From contig CAVUAK010000001.1 of assembly GCA_963739455.1 (NCBI GenBank), positions 231,300 through 295,299 on the forward strand: a stretch of 64,000 nt of DNA, read 5' to 3'. A model generated the notes under the pieces. It had not been told where the DNA came from and did no database searches. It saw only the letters and a list, made by a program, of their open reading frames with translations. Within the stretch, counting starts at the first letter, position 1. Every line of letters begins with the position of its first letter. The position numbers and the translations under genes were made by a program. This document shows, piece by piece, positions 19,395-53,318 of this stretch. The stretch is from an uncultured Gemmatimonadales bacterium. Its GTDB lineage: Bacteria; Gemmatimonadota; Gemmatimonadetes; Gemmatimonadales; GWC2-71-9.

Positions 19395-20422
19395 CAAGGC
19401 TGGCTCGACGCGGCGGCGCTCACCTGGGTGGCAAAGGGCTCCGGCTTGGCTGCCGACTCCGGCCACTCACCGCGAAGGAAGGTGGCCGCGGCGGTATCGA
19501 ATGCCGGTTCCGCCCCCAGCCAGGGGAAGCCGAACGCCCCGGCGATGAACGCGACACGTGCGTTCGGCAGGTGCTGCGCCCAGCGGGTCGCCGCAGCCTC
19601 CACCATCTCGTTGCCCGATCCCTCGATCACCAGCACCGGTGCCGGGACGTCATTCAGCGCCAGCCGCCAGCTCCAATAGCCCAGCTTCGACAGCACCGCG
19701 TAGTTGATGCGCTCCACCTGCTCGATGCGGTCGTCGGGTGCGCTGCACACGCTCCTGCCCACCGTCCGTGTGTCGGCGCGTGGATCCTTGAGCGTGCCGT
19801 AGAAGAACGTCGGCCACACCACCCGGCATGCACGCGACACACTCTCCCCACGCCGCAGTTGCCCCAGCATCTGGGCCTCTCGGCCACGTCCGGTGGTATC
19901 GGTGCGCTGCATGCCGATCTCAAAGGCGAAGGAGGGGTGTACCACGAAGGGACTGACCATCAGGATGCGAGATACCCGATCCGGATGGCGTATGGCATAG
20001 AGAGCGCCCACCGCTGCACCCCAGTGGTGCCCGACCAGCGTGAGTCGCGAAAGGCCGAAGTGCTGACGCACCGATTCGAGGTCGGCCACGTCGGAATCGG
20101 GCGAGAGGGCAAGCGAGTCGGTCACGGCATCCGACCGCCCGCGTCCCCGCATGTCGTAGTAGATCAGTGTCCGCCCCGCCTGCAGCGCCTGGAGCGGTGC
20201 CTCGAGGTACACATGATCCACACCGGGCCCGCCATGCAGCACGACCACCGTGTCCGGCCCCGATCCAAGCGCGACGTATGACAGTCGAATCCCGCTCGCG
20301 GTTGTGACCGTTCCCTGTTCCCTGTTCCCTGTTCCCTTGGCGGTACACGCGGTTCCCGCCCATACCACGGCACACACGATGGACAGCACGCGTAGCGGAC
20401 TCATTGAATTCCCGGCTGACAT
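19394..20422 (-). CDS. alpha/beta hydrolase (proline iminopeptidase-like) lipoprotein
   Basis: ORF extends to 20500; likely starts are ATG 20422 or 20404 (MSPLRVLSIVCAVVWAGTAC). HGGPG oxyanion motif and GHHWGA nucleophile-elbow-like motif. Its stop shares a base with the TBDR ATG (TGATG, 19392-19396). Confidence 0.7.
   Translation of the reverse strand: MSAGNSMSPLRVLSIVCAVVWAGTACTAKGTGNREQGTVTTASGIRLSYVALGSGPDTVVVLHGGPGVDHVYLEAPLQALQAGRTLIYYDMRGRGRSDAVTDSLALSPDSDVADLESVRQHFGLSRLTLVGHHWGAAVGALYAIRHPDRVSRILMVSPFVVHPSFAFEIGMQRTDTTGRGREAQMLGQLRRGESVSRACRVVWPTFFYGTLKDPRADTRTVGRSVCSAPDDRIEQVERINYAVLSKLGYWSWRLALNDVPAPVLVIEGSGNEMVEAAATRWAQHLPNARVAFIAGAFGFPWLGAEPAFDTAAATFLRGEWPESAAKPEPFATQVSAAASSQP
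20311..20338. repeat. CCCTGTT-family heptamer repeat, 4 copies, inside the hydrolase CDS
   Basis: ttccctg x3 plus ttccctt read directly. On the coding (minus) strand it encodes KGTGNREQGT directly after the lipobox Cys. Confidence 0.9.
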
Positions 20423-22268: not shown

Positions 22269-22298
22269 CTGTTCCCTGTTTCCCTGTTCCCTGTTCCC
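22269..22298. repeat. CCCTGTT-family heptamer repeat, 4 copies (one unit has an extra t)
   Basis: ctgttcc ctgtttcc ctgttcc ctgttcc read directly. It lies immediately 3' of the sulfatase stop (22300-22302), in the spacer before the metalloprotease gene. Confidence 0.9.
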
Positions 22299-27389: not shown

Positions 27390-27427
27390 CCTGTTTCCTG
27401 CTTTCTGTTCCCCGTTCCCTGTTCCCG
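27390..27427. repeat. degenerate CCCTGTT-family repeat tract
   Basis: cctgtttcctgctttctgttccccgttccctgttcccg lies in the divergent spacer between the decarboxylase and K1. Confidence 0.7.
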
Positions 27428-27517: not shown

Positions 27518-30514
27518 TTGAATAGCTTCGATCGCCTCACTGCCGCACTCTCAGACCGCTACCGCATCGAGCGCGAGCTCGGGCACGGGGGCATGGCCAC
27601 CGTCTACCTCGCGCACGACCTCAAGCACGACCGCCGCGTCGCCATCAAGGTGCTCCACCCCGAACTCGCCCACACGCTTGGCCCTGAGCGGTTCCTCCGC
27701 GAGATCACGACGACCGCCCAGTTCGACCATCCGTACATCCTGCCGCTCCTCGACAGCGGCGTTGCTGACTCACGACTGACGACTCACGACTCACGACTGC
27801 TGTTCTACGTCATGCCGTATGTCGAGGGCGAATCCCTCCGCGACCGCCTGAAGCGCGGGAAGCAACTTCCGGTCGATGAGGCGCTCCAGGTCACTCGCGA
27901 AGTCGCGGAGGCGCTCGGCTATGCCCACGCCAGGGGCGTCATTCACCGCGACATCAAGCCGGAGAACATCATGCTCTCGGGCGGCCACGCGCGGGTAGCC
28001 GACTTCGGCATTGCGAGGGCCATCGACGCCGCCGGCAACGAGAAGTTGACAGAAACCGGCCTCGCCATCGGCACACCAGCCTACATGAGTCCGGAACAGT
28101 CCATGGGCGAGCGGCGACCTCGACGGCCGGAGCGATCTCTACGCACTGGGCTGCGTGCTGTACGAGATGCTCGCGGGAGAGCCTCCCTATACCGGGACCC
28201 ACCGCGCAGGCCATCATCGCCAAGCGGATGACGAACCCGGTCCCGTCGGTGCTCACCGTGCGGGAGACGGTGCCGGACTCCGTCGATCGCGCACTGACAC
28301 GTGTGCTCGCCAAGGCCCCTGCTGACCGGTTCCCCACTGCCGCGCGGTTCGTCGATGCGCTGAGCCAGACGGCGACGACTGCGCCGATGGCGGTGAGACG
28401 GCCTGGTGCGCGGAAGAGTGCGAGGATCGTGGGAGCCGGCACCCTTCTGGCGGCAATTCTCTTTGGCGGCTGGCGCTTCGCGCGCGCACACCGGCCACAG
28501 GTCGAGCCATCAGTGTCGGTCATTGCCGTTTTCCCGTTTTCTTCCAGCGGAGACACGGCGCTGGCGCGACTGAGCCGTGACCTCGCCCTCACGATCAGCG
28601 CAAACCTCGACGGGCAGGGCGGCATCCGGACTGTGGACCCCCAACAGGTCTTGGCGAAGGTCGGCGACGGCAGCGGCCAGGGAGCCTCCGACGTGACCGC
28701 GCTCGGGAGGAGCCTCGGTGCCGGAAGCGTGCTCCGGGGCAGCATCGTGAAGGCGGGCTCCGACGCGCAACTCGACCTGAAGCTCGTGTCCACCACCGGT
28801 GACTCCGAGCCGTTGGCGCGGGTATCCCTGCGCAATGCCCCTGACTCCATCAACGCCCTCACGGACTCAATCACCTGGTCCGTGCTCCGGCAGATCTGGC
28901 GCCGGGGCGAGCCGCCCTCTCCGAGCTACGCAAACCTCAGCACCCGATCGGTGCAGTCGCTCCGCGCCTTCCTCGATGGCGAGCGGCTCAGCGTCGCCGG
29001 TCGCTACCCCGAGGCCATCGAGGCTTATTCCGCCGCTATCCAGGCCGACTCGAGTTTCTGGCTGGCCGGCTGGCGATACAATGCGGCGCAGGGATGGATG
29101 AATGATGCCCAGCCCGACTCGAACCTCGAGCGCGGGTATGAATCTCATCTCGCCGCGTTTGGGGAGCGAGATCGAATGCTGATCGAGGCCGAACGAGATG
29201 CCGAAGCTCAGGGTGCCAGGCACCTTGCCAGTATCGCGGCCATCAAGGATCGGTTCCCCACGGACTGGCTCGCCTGGTTCTACTACGCGGACCACCTCTT
29301 TCATGTCGGTGGTGTGCTCGGGCACACGAACGCCGAGACGAGGGACGCGCTGCAGCGCACCGTGGACCTGAATCCCCGAGCTGGTGCCGATGTGGAAGCA
29401 TCTCTTCCAGGCCAGTGTGAGCCACGATTCAGCCCAGAGCGGCCGTGCTCTGAGGGCTATGACCGCACTGGGTCTCTGGTCGGCAGGGTCCGAGGAATCG
29501 AAGCGGGTCGGCTTCGATACAGGGCTGTTCTGGCGCGTGCTCCAGTCGTACGCTGGCGAACCGTCGCTGCCGCTACTCGATAGCCTCGCGGCCAGTGTGG
29601 TCAGCGTGAAATGGCCGGCGCCTCCCACGTTCCTGACGTCAAACGGGTTCCCGGCCGCGCAAGTGCAATTCAACCAGCGCTGGATGCAGCTGGTCCCGAC
29701 TGGCACGCCGATCTGGCGGGCCTGGCGGGGTTCCGCCTATGCGTCGGTGGCCCGCGGCGCGTGGGACTCTGCCCTCGTCATGATGGATCGCTACGCGGCG
29801 GGAAGCCCCGACGACGCGGCAGCCCTCGACATCTATCGACTCGCTGTGATCGGTGCCTGGCTCGGCGGACTCGATACGCTCCGGGCGGCCGAGCGTCGCC
29901 CGGCGGCTGCGAAGTACGTCGCTCGGCTCTCTCCCGACTCCGCCTCCGGCAAGGAGGCGCGCGCGACCTTGGCCTGGAGCGACGGTATGCTCGCAGTGCT
30001 TCGGCGCGACAGGAAATTGCTTTCGACCGCGCGCGAGGCCAACCGGCAGAGTGGCGCCAGCGGGGCCGCGAACACAGGCCGGTTGCTGAGTGCCTTCGAG
30101 GCGCAACTTCGCGAAGAGACGCGAACGGCCGCCGATTCGTTTGCAATGCTGGACATCCCCGACACCACCAGCGCTCTTGCCGAGGTGGATTCGTATACGA
30201 GATCCGTGGCGCACATGAACGCGGCACAGCTGATGCTCGCGCTCGGTGACACAAGCCGGGCCGTTCGCTTGCTGTACTGGCATGAAGCGCACGGCGTCGA
30301 CAAGGATGCCTTTCCCCTCTTTGAGGCACTCGCGTACGACCAGCTGGCCCGCATCGAGGAGGCGCAGGGTAAGGACGACCTCGCCCGCGACCACTACCAG
30401 CAATTCCTCCGACGCTACGATATGCCACCCCCTGCCCATCAGTACATGGTCGACAACGCGAAGGCGGCGCTGCGGCGCCTGTCCGGCCAGAATGACGCTC
30501 CCGCCACAAGGTGA
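27518..30514 (+). pseudogene. Ser/Thr protein kinase K1 (kinase, TM helix, TolB-N-like segment, TPR-like region), interrupted by three +1 frameshifts
   Basis: ORF pieces 27518..28231, 28228..29583 and 29384..30514, plus a short middle frame, join into a ~995-aa protein. Motifs: [41 protein letters not shown]. Extra g at ~28113, extra a at 28197, extra c in the c-run 29374-29377. TTG start. Could be sequencing error rather than true decay. Confidence 0.7.
27767..27799. repeat. GACTCAC-family heptamer tract (about 4.7 units) inside K1
   Basis: gactcac gactgac gactcac gactcac gactgc encodes DSRLTTHDSRL between LLDSG and LFYVMPYVEGESL. Confidence 0.9.
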
Positions 30515-30804
30515 GCGCAGGCAGTACATTCTGTGGCCCCCATGGCCGACAACTCGACCCCACCCGCCGCACTCGCCGCCAGCCTCGCCGACCGCTACCG
30601 GGTCGAGCGCGAGCTGGGCGCCGGCGGCATGGCCACCGTCTACCTCGCTGAAGACCTGAAGCACGGCCGCAAGGTCGCCATCAAGGTCCTCCACCCCGAA
30701 CTCAGTGCCGTCATCGGCGGCGAACGCTTCCTCGCCGAGATCAAGGTCACCGCCGACCTGCAGCACCCCCACATCCTCGGCCTTATCGACTCCGGGGCCG
30801 TTCC

Positions 30805-30862
30805 GTCTGAACTCTGAACTCTCGACCCCTGACCCGTCTGACGACTCACGACTGCCGACTGC
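30805..30862. repeat. degenerate heptamer tract (about 8 units) inside K2, containing a perfect tctgaac duplication
   Basis: g tctgaac tctgaac tctcgac ccctgac ccgtctga cgactca cgactgc cgactgc read directly. Confidence 0.85.
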
Positions 30863-31479
30863 CGGCTTGCTGTATTACGTCATGCCCTTCGTGTCGGGCG
30901 AGTCCCTCCGCGACCGCCTGACCCGCGAGAAACAGCTCCCCGTCGACGATGCGACCCGCCTCGCGAAGGAGGTCGCCTCTGCCCTCGACTATGCCCATCG
31001 CCAGGGCGTCGTCCACCGCGACATCAAGCCCGAGAACATCCTGCTGCAGGAAGGCTCGGCCCTCGTCGCCGACTTCGGCATCGCCCTCGCCGTCCAGCAC
31101 GCCAGCGGCAGTCGCATGACCCAGACCGGCATGTCGCTCGGCACGCCCGTCCTATATGTCGCCCGAGCAGGCAATGGGCGAACGCGTCATCGGGCCGCGC
31201 AGCGATGTGTACGCCCTCGGCGCCATGACCTATGAGATGCTCGTCGGCGATCCGCCCTTCACCGGCAGCACGGTACAGTCGATCGTCGCCAAGGTGATGA
31301 CCGAGAAGCCGCTGCCGCCCTCGCGCATCCGCGACACGATCCCGCCAAACGTCGAGCACGCGGTGATGACGGCGCTGCAGAAGCTCCCCGCCGATCGCTT
31401 CTCCACCGCGAAGGACTTCGCTGACGCGCTCGAGGGCGGACGCTCCGGCACCTACGCCGCGACGGTGGTGACCGGCAAG

Positions 31480-31515
31480 CCTACCCGCCCTCCCCGCCCT
31501 CCCCGCCCTCCCCGC
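31480..31515. repeat. GCCCTCCCC-family nonamer tract (about 4 units) inside K2
   Basis: cctacccg ccctccccg ccctccccg ccctccccg encodes PTRPPRPPRPPR. Confidence 0.85.
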
Positions 31516-33265
31516 GCTTGCGGCGCGCCCTGGCGCTTGCAGGCACTCGGCGCCGCGGCGACGTTCCTCGGCATGCGCACGCGGCAGGCCGCGAGCACCG
31601 AGCGCCGCAAACTCTCCGCTTCACTCTCGGCCTCCCCCCGGACATCCGGATCGCGACCCCGATCACCAACCCGATCGCGATCTCACCCGACGGTGATCTG
31701 GTCGCATTCTCCGGACGGGCCGGCAACGGGCCGCTCCAGATCTTCATCCGACGCATGGACGAACTGGGCGTGGAGGCGATCCCGGGCACCGAGGGCGGCG
31801 AGCAGCCGTTCTTCTCGCCCGACGGCAAGTGGGTCGCGTACTCCGTCAAGCTCCAGCTAAGGAAGGTGGCGGTGACCGGCGGACCCTCGACCGTGCTGGC
31901 CGAGCTGCCCGGTGGCCGCCCGTCGGGTGGCGCATTCGTTCCGGATGGTCGCATTGTCGTCTCACGCGGAAACTCGCTCGCCATCATTCCGGCCGGCGGC
32001 GGCGCGGCGAGACTCCTCTCCGCGACCGACACCGCGACCGACCGCCTGCTGATGAATCCCAAGGTGCTCCCCGACGGCAAGACGGTGATCGTCACCCGCT
32101 GGCGTGGTTCGACGGTGTCGGCGGGCCTCTGGGTGGCCACGATCGGCGAGGGCAAGGCGACCGACCTGGAACTCCCCGGTACCTATGTGCTGGGCATGAT
32201 CGACAGGCACCTCATCTATGACACACAGGCCGGCGTGTTGATGGCGGTTCCCTTCGACATGGCGAAGCGAAAGGTCACCGGACCGCCCGTGTCGTTGCTC
32301 GATGGCATTGCGGTTGGCGCCAATGGCGCGGCCCAGGCCGCGATCTCGGAGAGCGGGACACTGGTCTACCAGACCGGTGCATTGCTCCGGCATGCCCTGA
32401 TCGTCGACCTCCATGGCGCGGTCGTGTCAAAGCTGCTCGACCCGGGCAAGTACGCCGTCCCCCGCTTCTCTCCCGACGGCAGTCGTATCGCCATAGGGCT
32501 GAACAACCAGGGAACCGCGGACATCTGGATGTATGACCTGCGCTCACAGACGCTCAGCCGTATCACGACGGAAGGCGACGTCAACGACCGCCCCGAGTGG
32601 AGCCCCGATGGCAAGCGCATCGTCTTCCGGTCCAATCGGGGCGGACCACTCGCGCTCTGGTCCCAGCCGGCCGACGGCACCGGGAAGGCCGAGTTGGTAT
32701 TTCAGGATCCCAAGGCGGAGATCTGGGAAGGCGTGCCGACGCCTGACGGTGCAAGCATGATCTACCGCACCGGCACCATTGGCACGGCCGACATCTGGCT
32801 GCGGCGGTTGACCGGCGACACCACTCGGCATCCGCTCGCCACGACGCCCTTCACCGAATGGTCCGGCCGGCCGTCACCCGACGGCAAGTGGCTCGCCTAC
32901 GAATCCATCGAGACAGGCGACTTCCAGGTCTACGTTCGTCCCATCGCCGAGGGCGGCGCCCGGCAGCAGGTATCGGTCGACGGCGGTGTCGAGCCAGTGT
33001 GGTCGCCTGACGGTACGACGCTCTACTACCGACACGATGACGAATTCCTGGCCGCTACCCTGACCACCACACCCAGCCTTGCCATCGTCCGGCGCGAGAG
33101 TCTCTTCAAGGGCGACTATCCGGTTACGACGGGCCACGCCAACTACGACATCGCGCCTGACGGAAAACGCCTCCTGCTGTTGCGATCGGTGCCCGACTCG
33201 GTCCACGCGATTGTGGTGCACAACTGGAGCACTGAAGTCCGCGCGAAGCTGGCGGCCGCCGGCAA

Positions 33266-35950
33266 ATGACAATGGACCGCCTCACTGCCTCCCTCGCCGA
33301 CCGCTACCGCATCGAACGCGAACTCGGCCAGGGCGGCATGGCCACCGTCTACCTCGCGCACGACCTCAAGCACGATCGCCCAGTCGCGATCAAGGTCCTC
33401 CGCCCCGAACTCGCTGCCGTCATCGGCGCCGAGCGTTTCCTGAGCGAAATCAAGACCACGGCGAACCTCCAGCACCCTCACATCCTGCCCCTGTTCGACA
33501 GCGGCATCGCCACCCTCGACCCACGACTCACGACTCCACGACCTCTCAACTGCTGCTTCTACGTCATGCCCTTCGTCGAGGGCGAGTCCCTCCGCGATCG
33601 ACTCATACGCGACAAGCAGCTCTCTATCACCGACGCCGTACGCATCGCCACGGAAGTCGCTGGCGCCCTCGACTACGCCCATCGTCGCGGCATCGTCCAT
33701 CGCGACATCAAGCCCGAGAACATTCTGCTGCATGACGGCCGGGCCCTGGTTGCCGATTTCGGCATCGCCCTCGCCGCGAGCAAGGCGGGCGACAGTCGCA
33801 TGACCCAGACCGGCATGTCCCTCGGCACACCCGCCTACATGTCGCCCGAACAGGCCATGGGCGAGCGCGATATCGGCCCCCGCAGCGACATCTATGCGCT
33901 CGGCGCCATGACCTACGAGATGCTCGTCGGTGATCCGCCCTTCACCGGCAGCACCGTGCAGTCGATCGTCGCCAAGGTGATGACCGAGAAGCCGGTGCCG
34001 CCCACGCGCATCCGCGACACTGTGCCGCCCAATGTCGAGCACGCGGTGCTCACCGCACTGCAGAAGCTCCCCGCCGATCGCTTCGCCTCCGCGAAGGAGT
34101 TTGCCGACGCCTTGGCGGACAGTGGACGGTCAGGCAACTACGCGGCGACGGTCGCTACGGGGACAACCCGCCTTCCCCGCCCTCCCCGCCCTCCCCGCCT
34201 CGGACTGATCGCTGCGGTTGCACTCATCTCCACCGCCGCGGGCCTGGCGGGCTGGCTCATGCGCGGAAGCTCGCGCGCGGGTCCTGCCACCTACGACGCC
34301 GCCCTCCCCGACAGCGCCGCCATCACGTTCGGCGCGACGACGTCCACCAGCAGCTTCGGTGCTGCCCGTCGCAACCTGTCGATCTCGCCCAGGGGCGACT
34401 TCGCCGTGTACGCCTCGCGGAGTGGTGACTCGACCCAGTTCTGGTACAGGAGCCTGAAGGATGCGGCGTCGCATCCCATCAGCGGCACCGAGGGAGGTAC
34501 CGGTCCAAGGATTTCTCCCGACGGATCCCGCATCGCGTACACCGCCGGCAATCGAGTCATGCTGATCCCCATTGCGGGAGGCACGCCCCGGATGCTGCTG
34601 GACGCCCAGGTGCCCGACAGCCCGGAATGGATTTCCAATACCGAGCTTTTCCTGCCGCAGCGCACCGGAACCCGCTTCACCCTGCTCGACCCCGAGGGTG
34701 GCGTGACGCATACCGTGGATCAGGCACACCCCTGCCTCGTCGGGCACTGGATTCCTGAGTATCGCGAGGTGATCTGCTCTTACAACGGAACGGCATCGAT
34801 TGTCGACCCGATCTCCCGCGAGGAGTGGAGCCTGCGCGTCGCCCGGCCCGATGGTTCGCCTGGGGCCAGCGTGGCCGGGTTCGGGTTCCGCGTCGTTGAC
34901 GGAGCGTACGTCGTCTACATGTCGGTGGACGGCGTGCTCCGCGCTGCACCCTACGACCACAAGCGACACCTCGTCGGCCGGTCGGTCACGCTCGATGGCG
35001 GAGTTCGCGGTGAGGCGCTGGGCGATGCCCAGATCGACATGGCGCCCAGCGGTACGCTCGTATTCGCCCCGGGAGTGAACGCGGCGGTTGGACACGTGGT
35101 CCGGCTTCGACCAGGACAGGCCCCGGAGCCATTGGTCGCTGAGGCGGCCGCCTTCCAGCGTATCGATATCAGCCGCGACGGCCGCTGGCTCGCCGCCGCG
35201 GTACAGATGGCGGAGGGCCAGGAGCTGCGCATCTACGATCTGCGCGATGGACAGCGCAGCACCATGCTCAGCGCCGAACTGGTTCGCCAGCCGCTGTGGA
35301 GTCCCACCGGAGCCCAGCTCCTCGTGTCCCGGCGCGACTCCAGCCTGAGCTCGATACTGATGACCGTGCCCGGGTCCGGCCACAAGCCCGTCACCCTGCT
35401 GACCGTCGAGGGCGCACCACTGGCGGTCGATCCGATCGACTATCCCGAGGAGCACACCGTCCTCCTGCAGGACTGGGGCGCCAACGTCACCCGCCGCTTC
35501 GACCCAGCGATATCCCCGGCGCAATTCGACACCGTCCTCACGGCGGCGAGGTTTCCTTCCGTGGCACCGGATGGAAAGCACATCATCTATCAGGACGGTG
35601 GAGCATCGGGCGTTCTCGTCACCAGCTATCCCGTGGCCGGCCGGCGCTGGCAGGTCGCCGCTGACGGGGTCGAGCCGCTATGGCTTTCCTCCACCGAGAT
35701 TCTCTGTCGCATCGGCGTCTCCTGGTACCTGACGCGCATCAACCCCGCGACTGGCGAACCGCTCGGGCCCGCGACGCTCTGGGGTCGTGACCCTCGCTTC
35801 AACGACACTGCAGGATGGTCCAACCGCCCCGACTGGCACGGCGGCATCATCTATGTCCAGGGCCCGGCCGAAGTGAGCGCCAGCTTCCTGCGCGTCGTGC
35901 CCAACTGGGTGGCACAGATGAAGAACGCTGTCGCCGCAGCCAATCGCTAA
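33266..35950 (+). CDS. Ser/Thr protein kinase K3 (kinase, PRP linker, TM helix, beta-propeller), intact
   Basis: 894-aa uninterrupted ORF. ATGA overlap with the K2 stop. All Hanks motifs present. TM helix LGLIAAVALISTAAGLAGWLM. C-terminal PD40/TolB-like repeats. Confidence 0.85.
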   Translation: MTMDRLTASLADRYRIERELGQGGMATVYLAHDLKHDRPVAIKVLRPELAAVIGAERFLSEIKTTANLQHPHILPLFDSGIATLDPRLTTPRPLNCCFYVMPFVEGESLRDRLIRDKQLSITDAVRIATEVAGALDYAHRRGIVHRDIKPENILLHDGRALVADFGIALAASKAGDSRMTQTGMSLGTPAYMSPEQAMGERDIGPRSDIYALGAMTYEMLVGDPPFTGSTVQSIVAKVMTEKPVPPTRIRDTVPPNVEHAVLTALQKLPADRFASAKEFADALADSGRSGNYAATVATGTTRLPRPPRPPRLGLIAAVALISTAAGLAGWLMRGSSRAGPATYDAALPDSAAITFGATTSTSSFGAARRNLSISPRGDFAVYASRSGDSTQFWYRSLKDAASHPISGTEGGTGPRISPDGSRIAYTAGNRVMLIPIAGGTPRMLLDAQVPDSPEWISNTELFLPQRTGTRFTLLDPEGGVTHTVDQAHPCLVGHWIPEYREVICSYNGTASIVDPISREEWSLRVARPDGSPGASVAGFGFRVVDGAYVVYMSVDGVLRAAPYDHKRHLVGRSVTLDGGVRGEALGDAQIDMAPSGTLVFAPGVNAAVGHVVRLRPGQAPEPLVAEAAAFQRIDISRDGRWLAAAVQMAEGQELRIYDLRDGQRSTMLSAELVRQPLWSPTGAQLLVSRRDSSLSSILMTVPGSGHKPVTLLTVEGAPLAVDPIDYPEEHTVLLQDWGANVTRRFDPAISPAQFDTVLTAARFPSVAPDGKHIIYQDGGASGVLVTSYPVAGRRWQVAADGVEPLWLSSTEILCRIGVSWYLTRINPATGEPLGPATLWGRDPRFNDTAGWSNRPDWHGGIIYVQGPAEVSASFLRVVPNWVAQMKNAVAAANR
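33515..33550. repeat. degenerate GACTCAC-family tract inside K3
   Basis: ctcgacc cacgact cacgact ccacgac ctctcaa encodes LDPRLTTPRPLN at the same kinase loop position. Confidence 0.7.
34167..34200. repeat. GCCCTCCCC-family nonamer tract inside K3
   Basis: cccgccttccccgccctccccgccctccccgcct encodes RLPRPPRPPRL. Confidence 0.85.
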
Positions 35951-35989
35951 GTCTTTGCCCATCAATACCTTGCTAAACTCACCATGAGC

Positions 35990-36005
35990 ATATAGATTTC
36001 TATAT
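35990..36005. promoter_or_regulatory. perfect inverted repeat ATATAGA-tt-TCTATAT in the AT-rich spacer upstream of vapB (candidate operator)
   Basis: Read directly. It lies 19 nt upstream of the vapB ATG, in the only AT-rich stretch of this region (35951-36023). Confidence 0.5.
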
Positions 36006-36023
36006 CACTTTCTGGACAGCTAG

Positions 36024-36275
36024 ATGGCCATCAGCATCAAGGACGCCGAAACCGACCGCCTCGCCCGCGCACTCGCCGCCGTTACCGGCGAGTCCCTCAC
36101 CGAGGCAATCAGGCGCGCCCTCCACGAACGCCTCGAACGTGAGTCCCATCGCGCACGCCGCGGCATCGATGCAGAGGTCCGCCGAATCCAGGAGCGCGTC
36201 GCTCGCCTGCCAATAGTGGACTCCCGGCCCGCAAGCGAAATTCTGGGCTACGACGAGCACGGCCTGCCGCACTGA
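36024..36275 (+). CDS. vapB: type II antitoxin, VapB family
   Basis: 83 aa, [38 protein letters not shown]... It ends 3 nt before a PIN-domain gene. Confidence 0.8.
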
Positions 36276-36278
36276 ACC

Positions 36279-36671
36279 ATGGTCATTGATACCTCTGCCC
36301 TTGTGGCCATCCTGACACACGAGACGTCAGCCGATCGGCTCGTCGTGGCGCTTGAGGCCGATCGCACGCGCCTCGTGTCCGCGGCAACAGTGGTCGAGGC
36401 ATCGCTCGTCCTGCTCGGGCGCTACGGAGAGGCCGGCGAGGCTCAACTCGATCGATTACTGCGTGGCATCGGGGCGGAAGTCGTTCCGGTCGGGGAGGAA
36501 CAGGTCGTACTGGCACGCGATGCCGCGCTGCGCTTCGGGCGCAGCCGTCATCCGGCTGCGCTCAACTTCGGCGATTGCTTCAGCTACGCCCTCGCCGTCG
36601 CACGGGACGAACCGCTCCTGTTCGTGGGTGACGATTTCTCGAAGACTGATGTCGAGGTCTGCTCCTGGTAG
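36279..36671 (+). CDS. vapC: type II toxin, PIN-domain ribonuclease VapC
   Basis: 130 aa. MVIDTSALVAIL (first acidic residue), ..VSAATVVEASLVL.., ..LNFGDCFSYALA.. are characteristic PIN motifs. Confidence 0.85.
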   Translation: MVIDTSALVAILTHETSADRLVVALEADRTRLVSAATVVEASLVLLGRYGEAGEAQLDRLLRGIGAEVVPVGEEQVVLARDAALRFGRSRHPAALNFGDCFSYALAVARDEPLLFVGDDFSKTDVEVCSW

Positions 36672-36673
36672 GC

Positions 36674-38941
36674 CTGAATGACGTTACGACCCGCCTCACC
36701 GCTGCCCTCGGCGACCGCTATCGCATCGAGCGCGAGCTCGGCCAGGGTGGCATGGCCACCGTCTATCTCGCCCACGACCTCAAGCACGACCGCAAGGTCG
36801 CCATCAAGGTCCTCCGGCCCGAGCTCGCCGCCTCACTCGGCGCTGATCGTTTCCTCTCCGAGATCCGGACAGTCGCCGCACTGAGCCACCCGAATATCCT
36901 GCCACTCTTCGACAGCGGCGTAGCCACCCTCGACCCTGAACGCTTAACTCCTGACTCTCAACTGTTGTTCTACGTCATGCCCTTCATCGAGGGCGAGACC
37001 CTCCGCGCCCGCATGACCCGCGAGAAGGCTCTCCCCGTCGACGAGGCCGTGCGCCTCACCCGCGAGATTGCCGACGCCCTCGCCTATGCCCACGCGCACG
37101 ACGTCATCCACCGCGACATCAAGCCGGAAAACATCCTGCTCCAGTCCGGCCATGCCGTGGTCGCCGATTTCGGTATTGCCCGCGCCGTGAGGACGGCCGG
37201 CGCCGAGCGCATGACGGAGGTGGGCCTGGCCATCGGCACGCCCGCCTACATGAGCCCGGAACAGTCGGCCGGTGAGCGCGACCTGGACGGCCGGAGCGAT
37301 CTCTACGCCCTGGCCAGCGTGCTCTACGAGATGCTTGCCGGCGAGCCGCCGTTCACCGGCGCAACCGTCGAGGCCATCCTGGTCCAGCGCTTCACCCAGC
37401 CGCCCCCGAAGATCACGAAGAAGCGGCCCACCATTCCGCGCGCGATCGAGGCAGCCCTGTACACGGCGATGGCCCGCGCCCCCGAGGAGCGCTTCCCCAC
37501 CGTCGAGCGGTTTGTTGCCTCACTTGAATCGAAGGAGACGTCGAGCACCGAGCTCGAGCGCTCCATTGCCGTGCTGCCCTTCGCCAACATGAGCGGCGAT
37601 CCGGAGAACGAGTACTTCTCCGACGGCATCTCCGAGGAGATCATCAACGCCCTGACCCAGTTGCCGAAGCTTCGCGTCGCGGCACGGACGTCTGCCTTTT
37701 CCTTCAAGGGCAGGAACCTCGACCTCCGGAGCGTCGGCGAGCAGCTGAACGTCGCCACCGTGCTCGAGGGGAGCGTGCGGCGCGCCGGCGGACGGATCCG
37801 CATCACCGCGCAGCTCGTCAATGTCGCCGACGGCTACCATCTCTGGTCCGAGCGCTACGACCGGGAGCTCACCGACATTTTCGCCATTCAGGATGAGATC
37901 GCCACTGCCATCGCCGGGAAGCTGAAGGTGACGCTCGGCGTGGGCAGCGAACGACAGCTGGTCCGTGCCCCTACCACGAACGTCGAGGCGTACGACCTCT
38001 ATCTCAAGGGACATGCCTTCGTGAAACAGCGGGGCCTCGCCCTGCTGCGCGCGGCGGATTGCCTCGAGCAGGCCATCGCACTCGATCCCGACTTCGCGCT
38101 CGCACACGCGGAACTCGCCGAGGCGCTGGTCCTGATGAGCCTGTATGGAATCGTCCTTCCTGCCGACATCCGCGACCGGGCGCGTCACGCCACCTCTCGC
38201 GCGCTGGAGCTCGATCCCGCCCTCGTCACCACCCAGATCGCGCTCGCCCTCTACTCCATCATCGTTGAGTTCGACCAGGCCGGGACGAAAGCGGCCTTCG
38301 CCCGCGCCATCGAGCTTGACCCTGCCGACATCGACGCCCGGACCTTCCAGGCGGCGTTCGACTTTTGCTACATTCGCGGCGAGCACGAACGCGCCGTCGC
38401 GCAACTCCTCGGCGTTGTCGAGTCGGATCCGCTGAGTGCAGTAGCACGCGGTCAGGCCGGTATCGTGCTCGCCTTCGCCGGAAGGCTCGACGAGGCGGAG
38501 GCACAGGCCCGGCGGGGCATCGCGCTCGACCCGGGCGCGTTCTACTCCCACTGGGCCCTGCTCCACGCCTTGATGCTGGGTTCCAGGCCAGCGGCTGGAG
38601 TGCAGGAAGGCCGCGCGATGCTGGCGCGTTTCGGCCGCCACCCGTGGCTCATGATGGGTGTCGCCTATGCCTGCGGAGCGGCGGGGCAGCCGGACAAGGC
38701 CGCGGCCATCTACGCCGAGCTCGAGGCTCGCTCCCGTGGCGAATACGTCCAGCCGGTGTCGCTCGCCGTCTCCGCCCTGGGAGCCGGCCGCCGGGATCTG
38801 GCGTTGCAGCATGTTCGCGAAGCCGGTCGCATCCGTGACCCCATGCTCGCAGCCACCGGTCTCCACGGCCCGATGTTCCCCTCGATCCGTAACGAACCGG
38901 AATACATTGCCATCCTCGAAGAGCTTGGTTGGCACAACTGA
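36674..38941 (+). CDS. Ser/Thr protein kinase K4 (kinase, TolB-N-like segment, TPR), probable CTG start
   Basis: The track ORF starts at ATG 36752, inside the Gly-loop. The frame is open upstream through ..RLTAALGDRYRIERELGQGG. CTG AAT at 36674 aligns with the TTG AAT start of K1. IAVLPFANMSGDPENEYFSDG segment, then TPR-like repeats. Confidence 0.75.
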   Translation: MNDVTTRLTAALGDRYRIERELGQGGMATVYLAHDLKHDRKVAIKVLRPELAASLGADRFLSEIRTVAALSHPNILPLFDSGVATLDPERLTPDSQLLFYVMPFIEGETLRARMTREKALPVDEAVRLTREIADALAYAHAHDVIHRDIKPENILLQSGHAVVADFGIARAVRTAGAERMTEVGLAIGTPAYMSPEQSAGERDLDGRSDLYALASVLYEMLAGEPPFTGATVEAILVQRFTQPPPKITKKRPTIPRAIEAALYTAMARAPEERFPTVERFVASLESKETSSTELERSIAVLPFANMSGDPENEYFSDGISEEIINALTQLPKLRVAARTSAFSFKGRNLDLRSVGEQLNVATVLEGSVRRAGGRIRITAQLVNVADGYHLWSERYDRELTDIFAIQDEIATAIAGKLKVTLGVGSERQLVRAPTTNVEAYDLYLKGHAFVKQRGLALLRAADCLEQAIALDPDFALAHAELAEALVLMSLYGIVLPADIRDRARHATSRALELDPALVTTQIALALYSIIVEFDQAGTKAAFARAIELDPADIDARTFQAAFDFCYIRGEHERAVAQLLGVVESDPLSAVARGQAGIVLAFAGRLDEAEAQARRGIALDPGAFYSHWALLHALMLGSRPAAGVQEGRAMLARFGRHPWLMMGVAYACGAAGQPDKAAAIYAELEARSRGEYVQPVSLAVSALGAGRRDLALQHVREAGRIRDPMLAATGLHGPMFPSIRNEPEYIAILEELGWHN

Positions 38942-38979
38942 CGACTCCCTGACGACTGATGACTGCCGACTGATGACCG
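38938..38979. repeat. CTGACGA/CTGATGA heptamer tract spanning the K4 stop and the next gene's start codon
   Basis: ctgacga ctcc ctgacga ctgatga ctgccga ctgatga ccgac read directly. TGA 38939-38941 and ATG 38973-38975 both lie inside repeat units. Confidence 0.8.
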
Positions 38980-39926
38980 ACATCCGTCCCATCACACTCG
39001 ACGAAATCCGCGCCGCGCGCACCCGCATCGCCGGCACCATCCTGCGCACGCCACTCGTCAAGCTCGAGCTCGGCCCCGGCTATCCCGACATCCGCCTCAA
39101 GCTCGAGAACCTGCAGCCCATCAACTCCTTCAAGCTTCGCGGTGCCGCCAACGCCGTTGCCCTGCTGACAGATGCCGAACGGAAGCTCGGCGTCTGGACC
39201 ATCAGTGCCGGCAACGCCGGCCAGGGTGTGGCGTATGCCGCGCGGCAGGCTGGAGTCCCCTGCACGGTCGTCGTCATCGAGACGGCGCCCGCCTCCAAGG
39301 TCGAGCGCATGAAGGCGCTCGGCGCCAAACTGGTGCTGGTGCCGTTCGCCGTCGCATGGAAGGCGCTCGAGGACCGCACCTATCCCGGCATCGAGGGCAC
39401 CTTCGTGCACCCCTTCGATGACCACAACTTCATCGCCGGCAATGCCACGGTTGGTCTCGAGATTCTCGAGGACGTCCCCGATGTCGCCGTCGTCATCGCT
39501 GCCCTAGGCGGCGGCGGCCTCATCGCCGGCGCCGGCAGCGCAATCAGGCCGCTGCGCCCAGACGTCAGGATCCTCGCCGCCGAACCCGAGACGGCGGCGC
39601 CCATGTCGCTCTCACTCGAGAAGGGCTCGCCCCAGGCGTTTCCCGGCTGGCAGGCCTCCTTCATTGACGGCGCAGGTGGCAAGAGTGTCTTTCCGCGCAT
39701 GTGGGAACGCATGCACGGCCTGCTCGACGGCAGCATTGTGGTCACCCTCGAGCAGGTGAAGGCCGCGGTCCGGCTCATGGCCGAGAAGTCCCGGGTCATC
39801 GCCGAGGGCGCCGGCGCCTTGCCGCTCGCCGCCGCACTCACCGGCAAGGCCGGTCCGGGCCCGATCGTGTGCATCGTCTCCGGTGGCAACATCGACCTCG
39901 ACAAGTTCGCCGAGTTCATCGCATGA
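38973..39926 (+). CDS. PLP fold-type II enzyme (threonine/serine dehydratase-like)
   Basis: In frame with track ORF 38658..39926. ATG 38973 gives MTDIRPITLDEIRAARTRIAG... NSFKLRGA lysine motif, SAGNAGQGVAYAA, GGGGLIAG glycine loop. Confidence 0.8.
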   Translation: MTDIRPITLDEIRAARTRIAGTILRTPLVKLELGPGYPDIRLKLENLQPINSFKLRGAANAVALLTDAERKLGVWTISAGNAGQGVAYAARQAGVPCTVVVIETAPASKVERMKALGAKLVLVPFAVAWKALEDRTYPGIEGTFVHPFDDHNFIAGNATVGLEILEDVPDVAVVIAALGGGGLIAGAGSAIRPLRPDVRILAAEPETAAPMSLSLEKGSPQAFPGWQASFIDGAGGKSVFPRMWERMHGLLDGSIVVTLEQVKAAVRLMAEKSRVIAEGAGALPLAAALTGKAGPGPIVCIVSGGNIDLDKFAEFIA

Positions 39927-41974
39927 GCCTGGACGCGCGCCTTGTTGCCGCCCTTGCTGATCGCTACCGCATCGAGCGCGAGCTCGGTGAGGGCGGCATG
40001 GCTACCGTCTACCTCGCCCACGACCTCAAGCACAACCGTCCCGTCGCGATCAAGGTCCTCCGCCCCGAACTCGCCGCCGCACTCGGGGCAGACCGATTCC
40101 TCCGCGAAATCGAGACGACGGCTAATCTCCGCCACCCGAACATCCTCCCATTGTTTGACAGTGGTGCACTGCCGACTGACTCACGACTGCCGACTGACGA
40201 CTCACGACTGCTGTACTACGTCATGCCCTTCATCGACGGCGAGTCGCTCCGAGATCGCTTGAAGCGCGAGGGACAGCTGTCGATTCCCGATGCCCTCCAG
40301 GTCGCCCGCGAAGTGGCCGATGCCCTCGGGTATGCCCACAGCCGCAATGTCATCCATCGCGACATCAAGCCCGAGAACATCCTTCTCGAGCGGGGACATG
40401 CCGTCGTCGCTGATTTCGGCATCGCCCGGGCCGCGAGCACCGCTGGCGCCGGGAGGCTCACCCAGACCGGCATGGCTATCGGCACCCCGGCCTACATGAG
40501 CCCGGAGCAGTCAGTGGGCGAGTCGGATGTCGACGCCCGCAGCGACCTGTACGCGCTCGGTTGCGTGCTGTACGAAATGCTGGCTGGTGAGGCACCCTAC
40601 ACCGGGCCGAATGCGCAGGCCATCATCGCCAAGCGTTTCATGGAGCCGGTGCCACGCATCTCCACCTTGCGGAGCACCGTTTCGCCTGCACTCGAGGCGG
40701 CCGTGAGTCGGCTCCTCGCCAGGTCGCCCGCCGATCGCTTTGCGACTGCGGATGAGTTCGTGAGGGCGCTCGACGATCCCGCGCCAGCCACGGTCACGGC
40801 GCCGGTGGTCGTTGAGGAGGGCTTCTGGATCGTGGTGATGCCCTTCCGGTTCAGCGGCGCGAGCACCGAGCTGACCGCACTGGCAGAAGGACTCACCGAT
40901 GAGATCGTGGCTGGGCTGTCACGATTCTCGTATCTCCGCGTTTCGCTCGGCGAGAAGCCCGGCGCGCGCTATGTGATCGAGGGAACCCTTCGTCAGGCAG
41001 GCGCAGCCCTGCGGCTGTCGGTGCAGCTGGTGGACACGAACTCGCGCGCCCACGTGTGGGCCGAGACCTACGATCGTGCCTTCCAGTCGGGGGACATCTT
41101 CGTGCTGCAGGACGATCTCGTCCCCCGCATCGTCTCCACGGTGGCTGACGCACATGGCGCCCTCCCTCATACCCTGAGCGAAGCACTGCGCGGCAGGGAT
41201 CCGGGTCTGCTCACGCCATACGAGGCCGTGTTGCGCAGCTTTGGCTACGGCTATCGCATGACGCCGGAAGAGCACGCTGCCGTGCGGGCCTGCCTGGAGA
41301 GAGCCGTCACGCAGGCGCCCGGCTACGCCGATGCCTGGGGCATGCTGTCGCTCGTGTATGCGGAGGAGTTCTCCAACGGGTTCAATGCGCGGCCCGATCC
41401 GCTCGGGCGTGCACTCCAGGCGGCTCGGCGCGCAGCCGACGCTGCACCGTCAAGCGCCCTGGCATACAACGCCCTGGCCCGGGCACTGTTCTTCCGGAAG
41501 GAGTTCCCCGCCTTCAGGGTCGCGGCGCAGCGTGCCATTGAACTCAATCCTTTCAACGGACCCACGCTCGCCGGCCTGGGTGGCATGGTGGCGTACGCCG
41601 GCGACTGGGAAGCTGGCTGCGCCCACGTCGAGCGGGCGTTGCGGCTCAACCCGCGACACCCCGGCGGCTACTGGTTCCCCCTGTACTACAATGCCTATCG
41701 TCAGGGGGACTACCGCGCTGCGCTGAACTTCGCCCTCAACATCGACCTCCCGGAATTCTTCGCGACGCACGAGGTCCTGGCCGCCGTCTATGGCCAGCTC
41801 GGGGAACGTGACGCGGCCGCGAGGAGCCTGCGGGAACTGCTCCGGCTGAAGCCCGACTTCGCCGCGACGATGCGCGAAGAAACCGGGAAGTGGCTCGATC
41901 GAGACCTCGTCGAGCACCAGGTCGATGGGCTTCGCAAGGCGGGACTGGAGCTTCCCGATGACATTGGACACTGA
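39923..41974 (+). CDS. Ser/Thr protein kinase K5 (kinase, TolB-N-like segment, TPR), intact
   Basis: In frame with ORF 39701..41974. ATG 39923 overlaps the upstream stop (ATGA) and gives MSLDARLVAALADRYRIERELGEGGMATVYLA. All Hanks motifs present. FWIVVMPFRFSG segment and TPR-like C-terminus. Confidence 0.85.
   Translation: MSLDARLVAALADRYRIERELGEGGMATVYLAHDLKHNRPVAIKVLRPELAAALGADRFLREIETTANLRHPNILPLFDSGALPTDSRLPTDDSRLLYYVMPFIDGESLRDRLKREGQLSIPDALQVAREVADALGYAHSRNVIHRDIKPENILLERGHAVVADFGIARAASTAGAGRLTQTGMAIGTPAYMSPEQSVGESDVDARSDLYALGCVLYEMLAGEAPYTGPNAQAIIAKRFMEPVPRISTLRSTVSPALEAAVSRLLARSPADRFATADEFVRALDDPAPATVTAPVVVEEGFWIVVMPFRFSGASTELTALAEGLTDEIVAGLSRFSYLRVSLGEKPGARYVIEGTLRQAGAALRLSVQLVDTNSRAHVWAETYDRAFQSGDIFVLQDDLVPRIVSTVADAHGALPHTLSEALRGRDPGLLTPYEAVLRSFGYGYRMTPEEHAAVRACLERAVTQAPGYADAWGMLSLVYAEEFSNGFNARPDPLGRALQAARRAADAAPSSALAYNALARALFFRKEFPAFRVAAQRAIELNPFNGPTLAGLGGMVAYAGDWEAGCAHVERALRLNPRHPGGYWFPLYYNAYRQGDYRAALNFALNIDLPEFFATHEVLAAVYGQLGERDAAARSLRELLRLKPDFAATMREETGKWLDRDLVEHQVDGLRKAGLELPDDIGH
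40167..40212. repeat. GACTCAC-family heptamer tract (about 6 units) inside K5
   Basis: cactgcc gactgac tcacgac tgccgac tgacgac tcacgac tgctg encodes LPTDSRLPTDDSRL. Confidence 0.85.
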
Positions 41975-44411: not shown

Positions 44412-44459
44412 GTCCTCCCCGTCCTCCCCGCCCTCCCCGCCCTCCCCGCCATATTATCC
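44412..44459. repeat. GCCCTCCCC/GTCCTCCCC nonamer tandem repeat, 5.3 copies, intergenic
   Basis: gtcctcccc gtcctcccc gccctcccc gccctcccc gccctcccc gcc read directly. It ends 2 nt before ATG 44462. Confidence 0.9.
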
Positions 44460-44461
44460 CC

Positions 44462-45836
44462 ATGCCCAAACCCCGACTCGCCGCCATACTCTCCGACATC
44501 CAGTTCTGGGTCCCCTTCGCCGTCCTGCTCACCGGCGCCCTGATCCTCGTTCTGGGTCAGCCGATGAGTACCTGGCCCGCTGACCTCGACGGACGCCGTC
44601 GCGCGCTCCGCACCGCCGGTCTCCTGAGTGGTGTTGCTGCCGGGGCCTGGCTCGGTGCCGCCGAGGCGCCCGCCAAGCTCGTCGCCACCGGCCTGAGTCC
44701 CGTCACCGTCTCGCTCGTCATGGTGTGCGGCGTCTTCCTCGCCCGCTGGAGCGTGCCCGCCCTGCTGCAGGGAACCTCCGCGGTCGGCGCCGACGTGAAG
44801 CAGGCCCCGCATCTCGTCATCTGGGCCATACTCGCCGGCAGCCTCTGGTCCATCGCCAACACCCTCACCGTCTACGCCATTCGCGATGTCGGCCTGAGCA
44901 TCGCGTTCCCGCTGTGGAACTCGAACAGCCTCCTCGGCATCCTCTGGGGCGCCCTCTTCTTCGGGGAGCTGCGCGGTGCCACCGGCGGCCAGCGCACGCG
45001 CGTCATCGGCGGCACCATCGCGATGTGCATCGGCGCCACGCTCCTCGCACTCGCCTCCACCCACGAGGCGGCGCACGGCTCTGCCGCCCGCGGCGTCATC
45101 GCGGCACTCGGTGCCGGCGCACTCTGGGGAACGATGTACATCCCCTACCGGAAGGCGTACCTCACCGGCATGTCGCCGTTGGCGTTCATCACCTTCTTCA
45201 CCGTGGGTGAGCTCGCCTGCATGGGCATCATCGCCCTCACCATCAATGGCGCATCGGTCACCGCCACCGAGCTCGCCGCCGCCCGCGGCGTCCTCTTCTG
45301 GCTCATGCTCGGCGGCTTCATCTGGGTCATCGGTGACCTCTTCCAGCAGTATGCCGCCAAGTACGTCGGCATCAGCCGCGGCATTCCGCTCTCGAATACC
45401 AACCAGCTCTGGGGACTCCTCTGGGGAACGCTCGTGTTCGGCGAACTCCGCCAGGGCGGCGTCTCCCTGCCCCTCGTCATCATCGGTTCGCTCACCATGG
45501 CCACTCGGCGCCGCCGCCGTTGCCCTCGCCACCACCGGCGATACCGAGCACGGGCGATGGCAGGAGGCCGCTGAGCGCGAAGCCCGTCGCTATGGCGTCG
45601 ATATCGAGTGGGTTCGCGCCCGCCTCCTCGGCACTGCCTCCGAACCCGCGCGACGGACATGGATTGACTGGACCTTGGTGGCAATTTCTACGGCAGTGTT
45701 CGTTTTTCTTGCACGCCAGGCCGAGGCTCCGGCGCTCGCCATGGACCTGCGCTGGGTAGTCATCCTGTGTATTGTGTCGGTCGCGCTGCTCGTGGCTGCG
45801 GGATGGATCCTGTGGCGAACGACCAGGTTCAATTGA
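44462..45836 (+). pseudogene. DMT-superfamily (GRP/RhaT-like) 10-TM transporter with a C-terminal extension, one +1 frameshift
   Basis: ORF 44462..45574 continues in the frame of 44976..45836 after an extra a at ~45503 (..VIIGSLTMA / LGAAAVALATTG..). AIRDVGLSIAFPLWNSNSLLGILWGALFFGE resembles GRP/RhaT family helices (recalled). Confidence 0.45.
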
Positions 45837-45880
45837 GAGTAGGAGGCGGGAGGGCGGGGCGCCCCTCAGGACTGGCGCAG

Positions 45881-45931
45881 CTCACGACTCACGACCCACG
45901 ACTCACGACCCACGACCCACGACCCACGACC
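45881..45931. repeat. CTCACGA/CCCACGA heptamer tandem repeat, 7 copies, intergenic
   Basis: ctcacga ctcacga cccacga ctcacga cccacga cccacga cccacga read directly. It is preceded at 45841-45862 by gaggcgggagggcggggcgcccc, an inverted nonamer-family fragment. Confidence 0.9.
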
Positions 45932-45941
45932 GAGGTTCCGC

Positions 45942-51678: not shown

Positions 51679-51701
51679 CCTGTTCCCTGTTCCCTGTTCC
51701 C
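51679..51701. repeat. CCCTGTT-family heptamer repeat, 3 copies
   Basis: cctgttc cctgttc cctgttc cc begins at the base after the carbonic anhydrase TAA (51676-51678). Confidence 0.9.
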
Positions 51702-52837: not shown

Positions 52838-52870
52838 GGAGGGCGGGGGAGGGCGGGGAGGGCGGGGAGG
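52837..52870. repeat. GGGAGGGCG nonamer repeat (inverse orientation of the GCCCTCCCC family), about 3.5 copies
   Basis: gggagggcg ggggagggcg gggagggcg gggagg starts at the last base of the desaturase TAG. Confidence 0.9.
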
Positions 52871-53079: not shown

Positions 53080-53318
53080 TGCTTTCTGCTAGCCCGGATA
53101 TGCCTGTGACCAGCTTGCTGTTGCGGTCTGCAACTCCCGGAGCCCGATGACCTCGTTGCGCCACGAAGACGCCTTCCGCCCTGCCGCTCCAGACCCGCTC
53201 GAACCAGGTCGGGATCGTAACCGCGCTCGCCGCGGTCTACGGCCTCGCCTACCTGGTCTTCGAGCGGGCTGGCGTTGGCAGCCAGGGCCTGCGCGATCTC
53301 CTCGGCAACGTCGCCTTC

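Follow-up and report, generated by a model that had tools for sequence, protein, structure and literature searches.

The simple-sequence-repeat (SSR) contingency loci of, for example, Neisseria, Haemophilus, and Campylobacter, which show phase variation by slipped-strand mispairing, contain a non-triplet repeat unit in a coding region and vary in unit number between relatives. In published accounts, the switching rate is tied to the repeat number (PMC11868660). The kinase gene K2, which is located in a 64,000-nt stretch of Gemmatimonadota DNA (the whole of which is referred to here as the window; 66.8% G+C), resembles these loci in its non-triplet unit and varying unit number and also in that arrays of the same heptamer family adjoin the start codons of neighbouring genes. 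It differs from them in having two perfect copies within a degenerate tract, in showing no ON/OFF polymorphism, and in the stability of the orthologous tract in three samples. Moreover, the repeat encodes a loop of a signalling kinase in a soil bacterium rather than a surface antigen, and the break in the K2 reading frame is probably not a change in unit number. Another precedent is offered by the STRR (short tandemly repeated repetitive) sequences of cyanobacteria, which are usually 7-bp tandem repeats of unknown function (PMC2670836). Similar to these, several families of 7-bp tandem repeats are dispersed in the DNA studied here and many of the arrays are intergenic or promoter-proximal (GTTCCCT; CACGACY/CTGACGA). 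In contrast, the host belongs to Gemmatimonadota, the units GACTCAC/CTGACGA and GTTCCCT differ from the cyanobacterial ones, and one of the families is embedded in coding sequence.

At the protein level, the kinase domain of the K2 paralogue K3 aligns with that of Mycobacterium tuberculosis PknB (PDB 1MRU, 1O6Y, and 3F69) over residues 8–273 (E = 3e-54). As in PknB, the catalytic motifs are complete, and the repeat tract corresponds to the PknB β4–β5 loop (..DTGEAETPAGPLPYIVMEY..), directly before the gatekeeper Met. The differences are that the sensor is a PD40/Tricorn-like β-propeller or consists of TPR repeats, whereas PknB has PASTA, and that the loop is built from a DNA microsatellite, its length ranging from 6 to >40 residues among homologues.

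Receptor kinases of the window and their β4–β5 loops

Six Ser/Thr kinase paralogues, K1 to K6, are encoded on the + strand between 27.5 and 49.5 kb of the window (Table 1). The C-termini of K2 and K3 are PD40/Tricorn-like β-propellers, those of K1, K4, and K5 are TPR repeats, and K6 aligns with K3 across the C-terminal β-propeller region. All Hanks-type (PknB-like) kinase motifs (VAIK, the helix-C Glu, HRDxKPxN, DFG, and GTPxYMSPE) were found in K2 after its frames had been joined, PF00069 matched its paralogues, and the PD40 profile scored 2e-29 on ORF 31518–33269. The repaired K2 spans 100% of the homologues P0001 (83% identity) and P0002 (73% identity), and the 91-aa product of its 5′ ORF is a called gene in a public collection. 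Judged by these matches, K2 is assigned to a Gemmatimonadota receptor family with a kinase, a TM segment, and a PD40/Tricorn β-propeller and is collinear with full-length homologues; it is one of six tandem Gemmatimonadota receptor Ser/Thr kinases, in each of which a PknB-like kinase is joined by a repeat-rich linker and a transmembrane segment to a sensor domain. Among the matches listed from a genome-contig scan with the K2 C-terminus, relatives were of at most 43% identity.

All six kinases carry an insertion of GACTCAC-like or TCTSRAC-like heptamers between β4 and β5. Among the approximately 330 homologues listed in the protein searches, about 80% of those spanning the loop have a six-residue loop such as EADGLL, while about 20% contain insertions of 12–45 residues at exactly the β4–β5 point, many of them with LTT(H/D)DSRL. 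In the AlphaFold model of K5 (mean pLDDT 82.9), the tract forms an extended β4–β5 hairpin; in all six kinases, a heptanucleotide microsatellite encodes a longer hairpin in place of the six-residue β4–β5 turn (EADGLL) of most homologues. The heptamer family is translated in all three phases, giving DSRLTTH. The codons of the tracts are atypical, with a GC3 of 0.53–0.67 versus 0.85 in the window's genes and with recurrent TCA, CGA, and ACT (5–8% of their synonymous sets), which argues that the tract was made at the DNA level rather than selected as a peptide. The heptanucleotide loop tract is real, and it is also present in the Illumina contigs L001, L002, and L090. The K2 orthologues in L085 and L004 lack any tract. 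The tract turns over fast between relatives, and about 20% of these kinases have a β4–β5 loop enlarged by such a repeat. The literature was searched for repeats in Gemmatimonadota kinases, and neither anything relevant nor a published account of the loop tract was found.

Homologues from other lineages (P0010, P0027, P0054, P0345, and P0348) contain different insertions at the same position; the β4–β5 loop seems to be a general insertion hot spot. The SPIAQSPNHPIAE-type loops of other lineages suggest a further 7-nt unit, and one 39-residue insert (..HSERSEESG..PERREGEESG..) resembles a translated palindromic repeat element. In L089 (330–560), a K2-like kinase N-terminus stops at the 3′ end of the heptamer tract; the DNA beyond is unrelated and carries an oppositely oriented gene. 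This junction may be either a rearrangement breakpoint within the tract or a short-contig chimera.

Several observations concern the parts of the kinases beyond the loop. Arrays of the 9-mer CCTCCCCGC / ACCCGCCCT encode the PRP/PTR repeats of the kinase-to-TM linkers and occur in intergenic DNA, too. The kinase/sensor junction falls into separate ORFs in several assemblies (window K2, L004, L085, and L091); L090 was uninformative on this split, having a stretch of poly-C junk in its linker. The K2 linker and TM segment (window 31470–31620 vs. L085 3790–3925) is replaced by unrelated sequence in L085 between flanks of 95–100% identity, and the patch of the window resembles the L004/P0003 allele; the replacement looks like a cassette-style allele exchange. 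P0002 (L003 10001–12697) is a full-length homologue with a K3-like kinase domain fused to a K2-like β-propeller, a composition that suggests domain shuffling or gene conversion between paralogues. On reading the sequence, a putative vapBC-like toxin–antitoxin pair was recognized (ORFs 36024–36275 and 36279–36671). The region containing this pair and K4 (35951–38941) is missing from the syntenic L085, where the PALP gene directly follows K3.

Table 1 Features of K2, its paralogues, and the repeat arrays (window positions unless another contig is named)
Feature	Position	Strand	Details
Two perfect TCTGAAC copies (the doublet)	30806–30819	+	sequence, TRF
K2 5′ ORF: kinase N-lobe (G-loop, VAIK, helix C, HPHILGLIDSG), ends at TGA 30815–30817	30542–30817	+	
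79-nt heptanucleotide tract encoding the enlarged β4–β5 loop of K2	30797–30875	+	canonical loop 21 nt (L004, L085)
Likeliest site of the surplus base (G30805, T30806, or C30807)	30805–30807	+	comparison with L089, L090, L088, L091
Second perfect heptamer pair, CGACTGC x2.3	30849–30864	+	inside 30841–30874, identical to the L002 orthologue
K2 kinase, β5 to activation segment (YYVMP, HRDIKPEN, DFG), frame 0	30820–31147	+	
CCC run in GGCACGCCCGTCC (GTPxYMSPEQ motif), second K2 frameshift (+1)	31146–31148	+	one extra C relative to L085
K2 kinase C-lobe and PRP linker, frame 1	31149–31515	+	includes 9-mer array CCTCCCCGC x4 at 31480–31515
K2 linker/transmembrane patch	31516–31610	+	non-homologous to L085, several 1-nt indels vs. 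L004
K2 C-terminal PD40/Tricorn-like β-propeller (in ORF 31518–33269)	31611–33269	+	94% identical to L001, purifying selection
K1 loop tract	27761–27805	+	45 nt, VADSRLTTHDSRLLF
K3 loop tract	33506–33559	+	54 nt; L001 orthologue 87 nt; L085 canonical length
K4 loop tract	36920–36970	+	51 nt, CCTCGAC-CCTGAAC-GCTTAAC-TCCTGAC-TCTCAAC; architecture as in L090, L091
K5 loop tract	40166–40216	+	51 nt in window and L085; units wholly different, L085 homogenized to CCCTCAC
K6 loop tract	47044–47112	+	69 nt
Frame-switch sites, precise	31148, about 31603, 45503, about 54342, 54760, 55112		
Frame-switch sites, approximate	about 28110, 28190, 29388, 36684, 46600, 47720, 47990, 48100		
Genes with further frame switches	K1 27518–30514; K4 start 36678–36700; GlcU-like 44564–45833; DUF2231 45942–46775; K6 46798–49479; PAS-GGDEF-EAL 53187–55865		
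9-mer arrays	31480–31515, 34167–34199, 44414–44450, 52837–52870, 55866–55984; L004 about 3010–3040		
GTTCCCT arrays	4045–4066, 20310–20337, 22269–22298, 27407–27426, 51679–51701; L085 11306–11417		

The TCTGAAC doublet and the K2 reading frame

In the tract of K2, TCTGAAC at 30806–30812 is directly repeated at 30813–30819, and TRF reported 2.4 perfect copies (30806–30822). Read from the start codon (GTG 30533 or ATG 30542), the K2 frame ends at the TGA at 30815–30817, in agreement with the listed ORF 30533–30817, and removal of one 7-nt copy gives IDSGAVPSELSTPDPSDDSRLPTAGLLYYVMPFVSGES, which is identical to the peptide obtained in the sequence-only reading. These observations of that reading were thus reproduced. 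The window contains 16 perfect 7+7 loci, compared with 6.0 ± 2.6 expected from Markov-1 simulations, and 11 of the 16 fall in two heptamer families; a perfect 7+7 repeat alone is not rare, and the K2 doublet matters by its position, not by its existence. It is situated in the degenerate 5′ half of the 79-nt tract, between the DSG and YYVMP codons, and the register of the whole tract is GCCGTTCC-G-TCTGAAC-TCTGAAC-TCTCGAC-CCCTGAC-CCGTCTGAC-GACTCAC-GACTGCC-GACTGCC-GGCTTGCTGTAT.

The sequence-only reading took the duplication itself for the lesion of K2. Because 7 = 1 mod 3, gain of a unit and gain of a single base are indistinguishable by frame, and any 1-nt deletion within 30797–30814 likewise reopens K2. 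The relatives point to the single base. The same type of doublet followed by TCTCGAC is in frame in L090 (JGI, Illumina), where the register is GTGGCCAC-TCTGGAC-TCTGGAC-TCTCGAC-TCCTGGC-TCTCAAC-TGCTCTTC, open through FYVMP (VATLDSGLSTPGSQLLF), and in L089 (Illumina, megahit contig; same 90% cluster as the K2 N-terminus), where it is GCAGTTCC-CCTGGAC-TCTGGAC-TCTCGAC. L091 and K4 of the window show the same five-unit architecture in a degenerate form. K2 has the architecture of its relatives but is one base longer, the surplus (G30805/T30806) lying at the 5′ edge. Removing any one of G30805, T30806, or C30807 results in AVPLNSELSTP.. (AVPLNSELSTPDPSDDSRLPTAGLL), and K2 repaired in this way lines up codon for codon with L089, to which it shows three synonymous differences. 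The one-base repair scored better than the 7-nt repair against five of six related loops (L089, 48 vs. 34; L090, 58 vs. 45; L091, 68 vs. 50; K4, 55 vs. 51; L088, 85 vs. 79), and it restores the Leu common to the K2-like loops: AVPL opens the loops of P0134, P0301, and P0302, and the fourth-position Leu is also retained in P0001, P0018, P0159, and P0310. Two facts run counter to the one-base interpretation: the 7-nt repair was marginally better against L002 (96 vs. 94) and its 72-nt product has exactly the length of the L002 orthologue tract. In addition, an inserted T lengthens the perfect periodicity from 16 to 17 nt, for which a random base has a chance of 1 in 4.

According to the sequence-only reading, a one-copy, in-frame allele of 72 nt gained a TCTGAAC unit by slipped-strand mispairing, and this +7 change is the genuine lesion. 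The perfection of the repeat over 17 nt, the length match with L002, and the real unit-level turnover in these tracts are in line with this explanation. Nevertheless, no one-copy relative was found by protein searches, metagenome scans, or in the 90% cluster. The exact-flank metagenome scan covering 0–4 copies (GGGGCCGTTCCG N{0,28} TCTCGACCCCTGACCC) gave no matches, and what the metagenome scan with the 3′ part of the tract detected was confined to two additional samples of the L002 species, in which the tract is the same. Since the doublet is in frame in L090 and L089, the explanation needs a −6 followed by a +7 change, or parallel duplications, versus a single +1. Furthermore, with the 7-nt repair the conserved AVPL Leu is lost and the scores are lower for five of the six relatives, and the other five tracts of the window are all in frame. 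We consider a genuine +7 lesion unlikely. The idea of whole-unit change holds for the history of the tracts, as indicated by the doublet, the K3 lengths, and the K5 homogenization, but not for the doublet as the lesion of K2. The claimed difference in kind from the single-base frameshifts nearby was not supported either, as the K2 break is most likely one of them.

Other kinases keep the doublet in frame, deleting one base restores the K2 frame, and the remaining frameshifts of the window are clean single-base events. The doublet would then be an old slippage product kept in frame, which related kinases, together with TCTCGAC, would read as L-(N/D)-x-(E/G)-L-S-T, and a single additional base, placed at the tract's 5′ edge (GTT CCG [T]CT G..), would break K2; its removal gives AVPLNSELSTPDPSDDSRLPTAGLLYYVMP.

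A programmed +1 frameshift like that of prfB (CUU UGA C) was considered at CTC TGA A and rejected: the CUC to UCU re-pairing is not cognate, no Shine–Dalgarno-like stimulator is present (GGGG lies about 20 nt upstream rather than 3), and the orthologues are without the site.

The identity to L085, which is 95–100% in the flanks, decreases to 77–88% only around the K2 tract, which suggests that loop alleles may be exchanged by recombination. The tract could also be a chimeric consensus of two co-occurring loop alleles, so that the 79-nt sequence would exist in no cell. Besides the local loss of identity and the non-homologous linker/TM patch, this agrees with the composite structure of the tract, whose 5′ half is of the K4/L090 type while the 34 nt on its 3′ side match the L002 type exactly, and with the occurrence of both tract-bearing and tract-free alleles among close relatives. 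On the other hand, genuine recombination between alleles gives the same mosaic, and each half has a regular heptamer register of its own; a chimeric tract was judged improbable.

Frameshifts elsewhere in the window

When codon-usage segmentation was combined with three-frame views and homology, about 15 frame switches inside genes emerged, 13 of them being +1; they fall in seven genes of the window. K1, K2, K6 (the ORF of which stays open), and the PAS-GGDEF-EAL gene contain three each, while K4 (at its start), the GlcU-like transporter gene, and the DUF2231 gene contain one each. Outside K2 there are about 12, of which 11 are +1, and the three +1 shifts in each of K1, K6, and the GGDEF-EAL gene lead back to the starting frame. 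An annotator would call K6 as an 893-aa protein, in which residues ~300–430 are out of frame. Codon-usage segmentation revealed no frame switch in the remaining ~45 kb; for ~9 kb of this, a direct check against L085 was possible and likewise showed none.

The junctions are clean. Segments of the PAS-GGDEF-EAL gene are 95–100% identical to intact 918-aa homologues, with exactly one extra base per junction, and the GlcU-like gene has a one-base junction at 45503 with 94–96% identity to its homologues. K2 reads in frames 2, 0, 1, and 0 in turn, the L002 orthologue being intact; besides the tract, K2 contains two more frameshifts, one at 31148 and a −1 shift at about 31603 after which frame 0 is read, and its TM patch is scrambled; these features may be assembly errors. 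There are no in-frame stops in the repaired frames of K2, and its C-terminus shows no relaxed constraint, the synonymous/non-synonymous counts being 35/18 for the window branch and 31/14 for the L001 branch. The view of K2 as a dead gene with multiple lesions was dropped on this branch test and on the clean one-base junctions of the GGDEF-EAL and GlcU-like genes; the simple dead gene that the sequence-only reading had named as an alternative is doubtful, as the other K2 lesions look like assembly errors.

In the sister long-read contig L085, which is 90–92% identical to the window, genes with an intact window counterpart contain six uncompensated single-base frame-breaking indels, each of them an insertion in L085. 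At the C-rich GTPxYMSPEQ site, where the second lesion of K2 is located (CC to CCC), L088 has a −1 change. For natural indels in bacteria, 13 insertions in 15 events outside homopolymers would be an unusual bias. No common motif, such as a methylation site, was seen at the insertion sites. The contig of origin spans 2.59 Mb (2,585,337 bp), the sister contigs bear Flye-style names, and several other related MAGs originate from the Microflora Danica long-read project, the pipeline of which is Nanopore-only with one round of Medaka polishing (PMC12313526); the window itself may have been produced by this pipeline. The frameshifts resemble the artefacts of Nanopore-only assemblies in that they are clean single-base indels splitting conserved genes, that the insertion bias is common to the window and L085, and that indels recur at one C-rich motif. 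They are unlike such artefacts in that the breaks of the window cluster in few genes and most lie outside long homopolymers.

Considering these results, we give about even odds (a probability of roughly 0.5) to a single surplus base in the K2 tract that arose through faulty assembly and not through a true mutation of very recent date. Consensus error is the leading reading and genuine recent mutation comes second; the readings overlap, and their probabilities sum to slightly more than 1. The surplus base would belong with about 14 other frameshifts of the window, 12 of them +1, which most likely are long-read metagenome consensus errors at strain-variable patches. Such patches must be assumed, since the clustering of ~15 frameshifts in seven genes is unexplained by uniform errors. 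K2 would then probably be intact in the living cell.

If all the frameshifts were genuine, K2, K1, K4, K6, the PAS-GGDEF-EAL gene, and the others would be very recent pseudogenes in a decaying signalling cluster. The confinement of the breaks to seven genes, with none detected in the rest of the window, speaks for this possibility, as does the absence of K4 and the vapBC-like pair from L085, which indicates an array in flux. The K2 orthologue of L004 is also frameshifted, by a real-looking −1 inside a 9-mer linker unit; L004 is derived from Illumina data, thus genuine breaks occur in the family, which counts against assembly error. However, the repaired frames are free of in-frame stops, non-synonymous changes are not in excess, even genes with three lesions keep an identity of 95–100% to intact homologues, and the insertion bias matches the assembly-type breaks of L085. 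A decaying cluster of this kind is considered unlikely, and consensus error is preferred.

Heptamer arrays and the question of phase variation

Heptamer arrays are not restricted to the kinase loops; at a stringent threshold, four period-7 tracts were found in the window versus none in shuffles. A second family, GTTCCCT (CCCTGTT), forms intergenic arrays of 3–4 units, among them arrays in the divergent upstream region of K1 and in the gap in front of a desaturase gene. Between K5 and the FAD mono-oxygenase gene, a GTTCCCT array of >100 nt is present in L085 and none in the window. Arrays of the kinase-loop family adjoin start codons (window 38949–38981 and 45880–45936; L085 8268–8308). CTGACGA/CTGATGA units extend into the ATG of the PALP enzyme gene, so that the start codon lies inside a unit, and this array is 8 nt longer in L085 than in the window; CACGACY x7 stops 6 nt short of the GTG with which the DUF2231 gene starts.

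The sequence-only reading had also raised the possibility of an ON/OFF state. In that case, K2 would be a phase-variable (contingency) kinase with gain and loss of heptamers at high frequency, and the window would have caught its OFF state. K2 has a repeat unit whose length is not divisible by three, its tract falls within the 5′ third of the gene, orthologues differ in tract length, and arrays of the same family adjoin the start codons of two neighbouring genes, all of which speaks for such a locus. Against it, TCTGAAC occurs perfectly only twice (TRF, 2.4 copies), much too few for a hypermutable array, the 79-nt tract is otherwise degenerate, and the tracts of L002, L086, and L087, from three independent samples, are identical at 72 nt. 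The other tracts examined are all multiples of 3, except for the canonical-length K3 loop of the error-prone L085 (22 nt), and three stops in the shifted frame block downstream compensation. Co-occurring ON and OFF tract lengths were not encountered among close relatives, either in the tracts examined or in the exact-flank scans for 0–4 copies. We regard an ON/OFF switch in K2 as very improbable. The broader proposal, in which the heptamer arrays would form a contingency system in soil Gemmatimonadota that stochastically varies the length of the β4–β5 loop, switches off individual sensor kinases, and tunes the expression of neighbours, with K2 in a genuine OFF or intermediate state, is quite improbable. 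While the doublet itself was correctly observed, its interpretation as a unit-duplication lesion or as an ON/OFF state is probably wrong.

A unit duplication that switches a kinase off would, if true, be the first hint of contingency loci in soil Gemmatimonadota, but the evidence points the other way. Two lessons follow: with a 7-nt unit, the frame alone cannot separate the deletion of one unit from that of one base, and clustered single-base frameshifts in long-read MAGs can mimic arrays of pseudogenes. The part of lasting biological value is the loop tract, a microsatellite that is gained, lost, and homogenized between close relatives and that lengthens a single surface hairpin in roughly one fifth of the members of a very large family of kinases.
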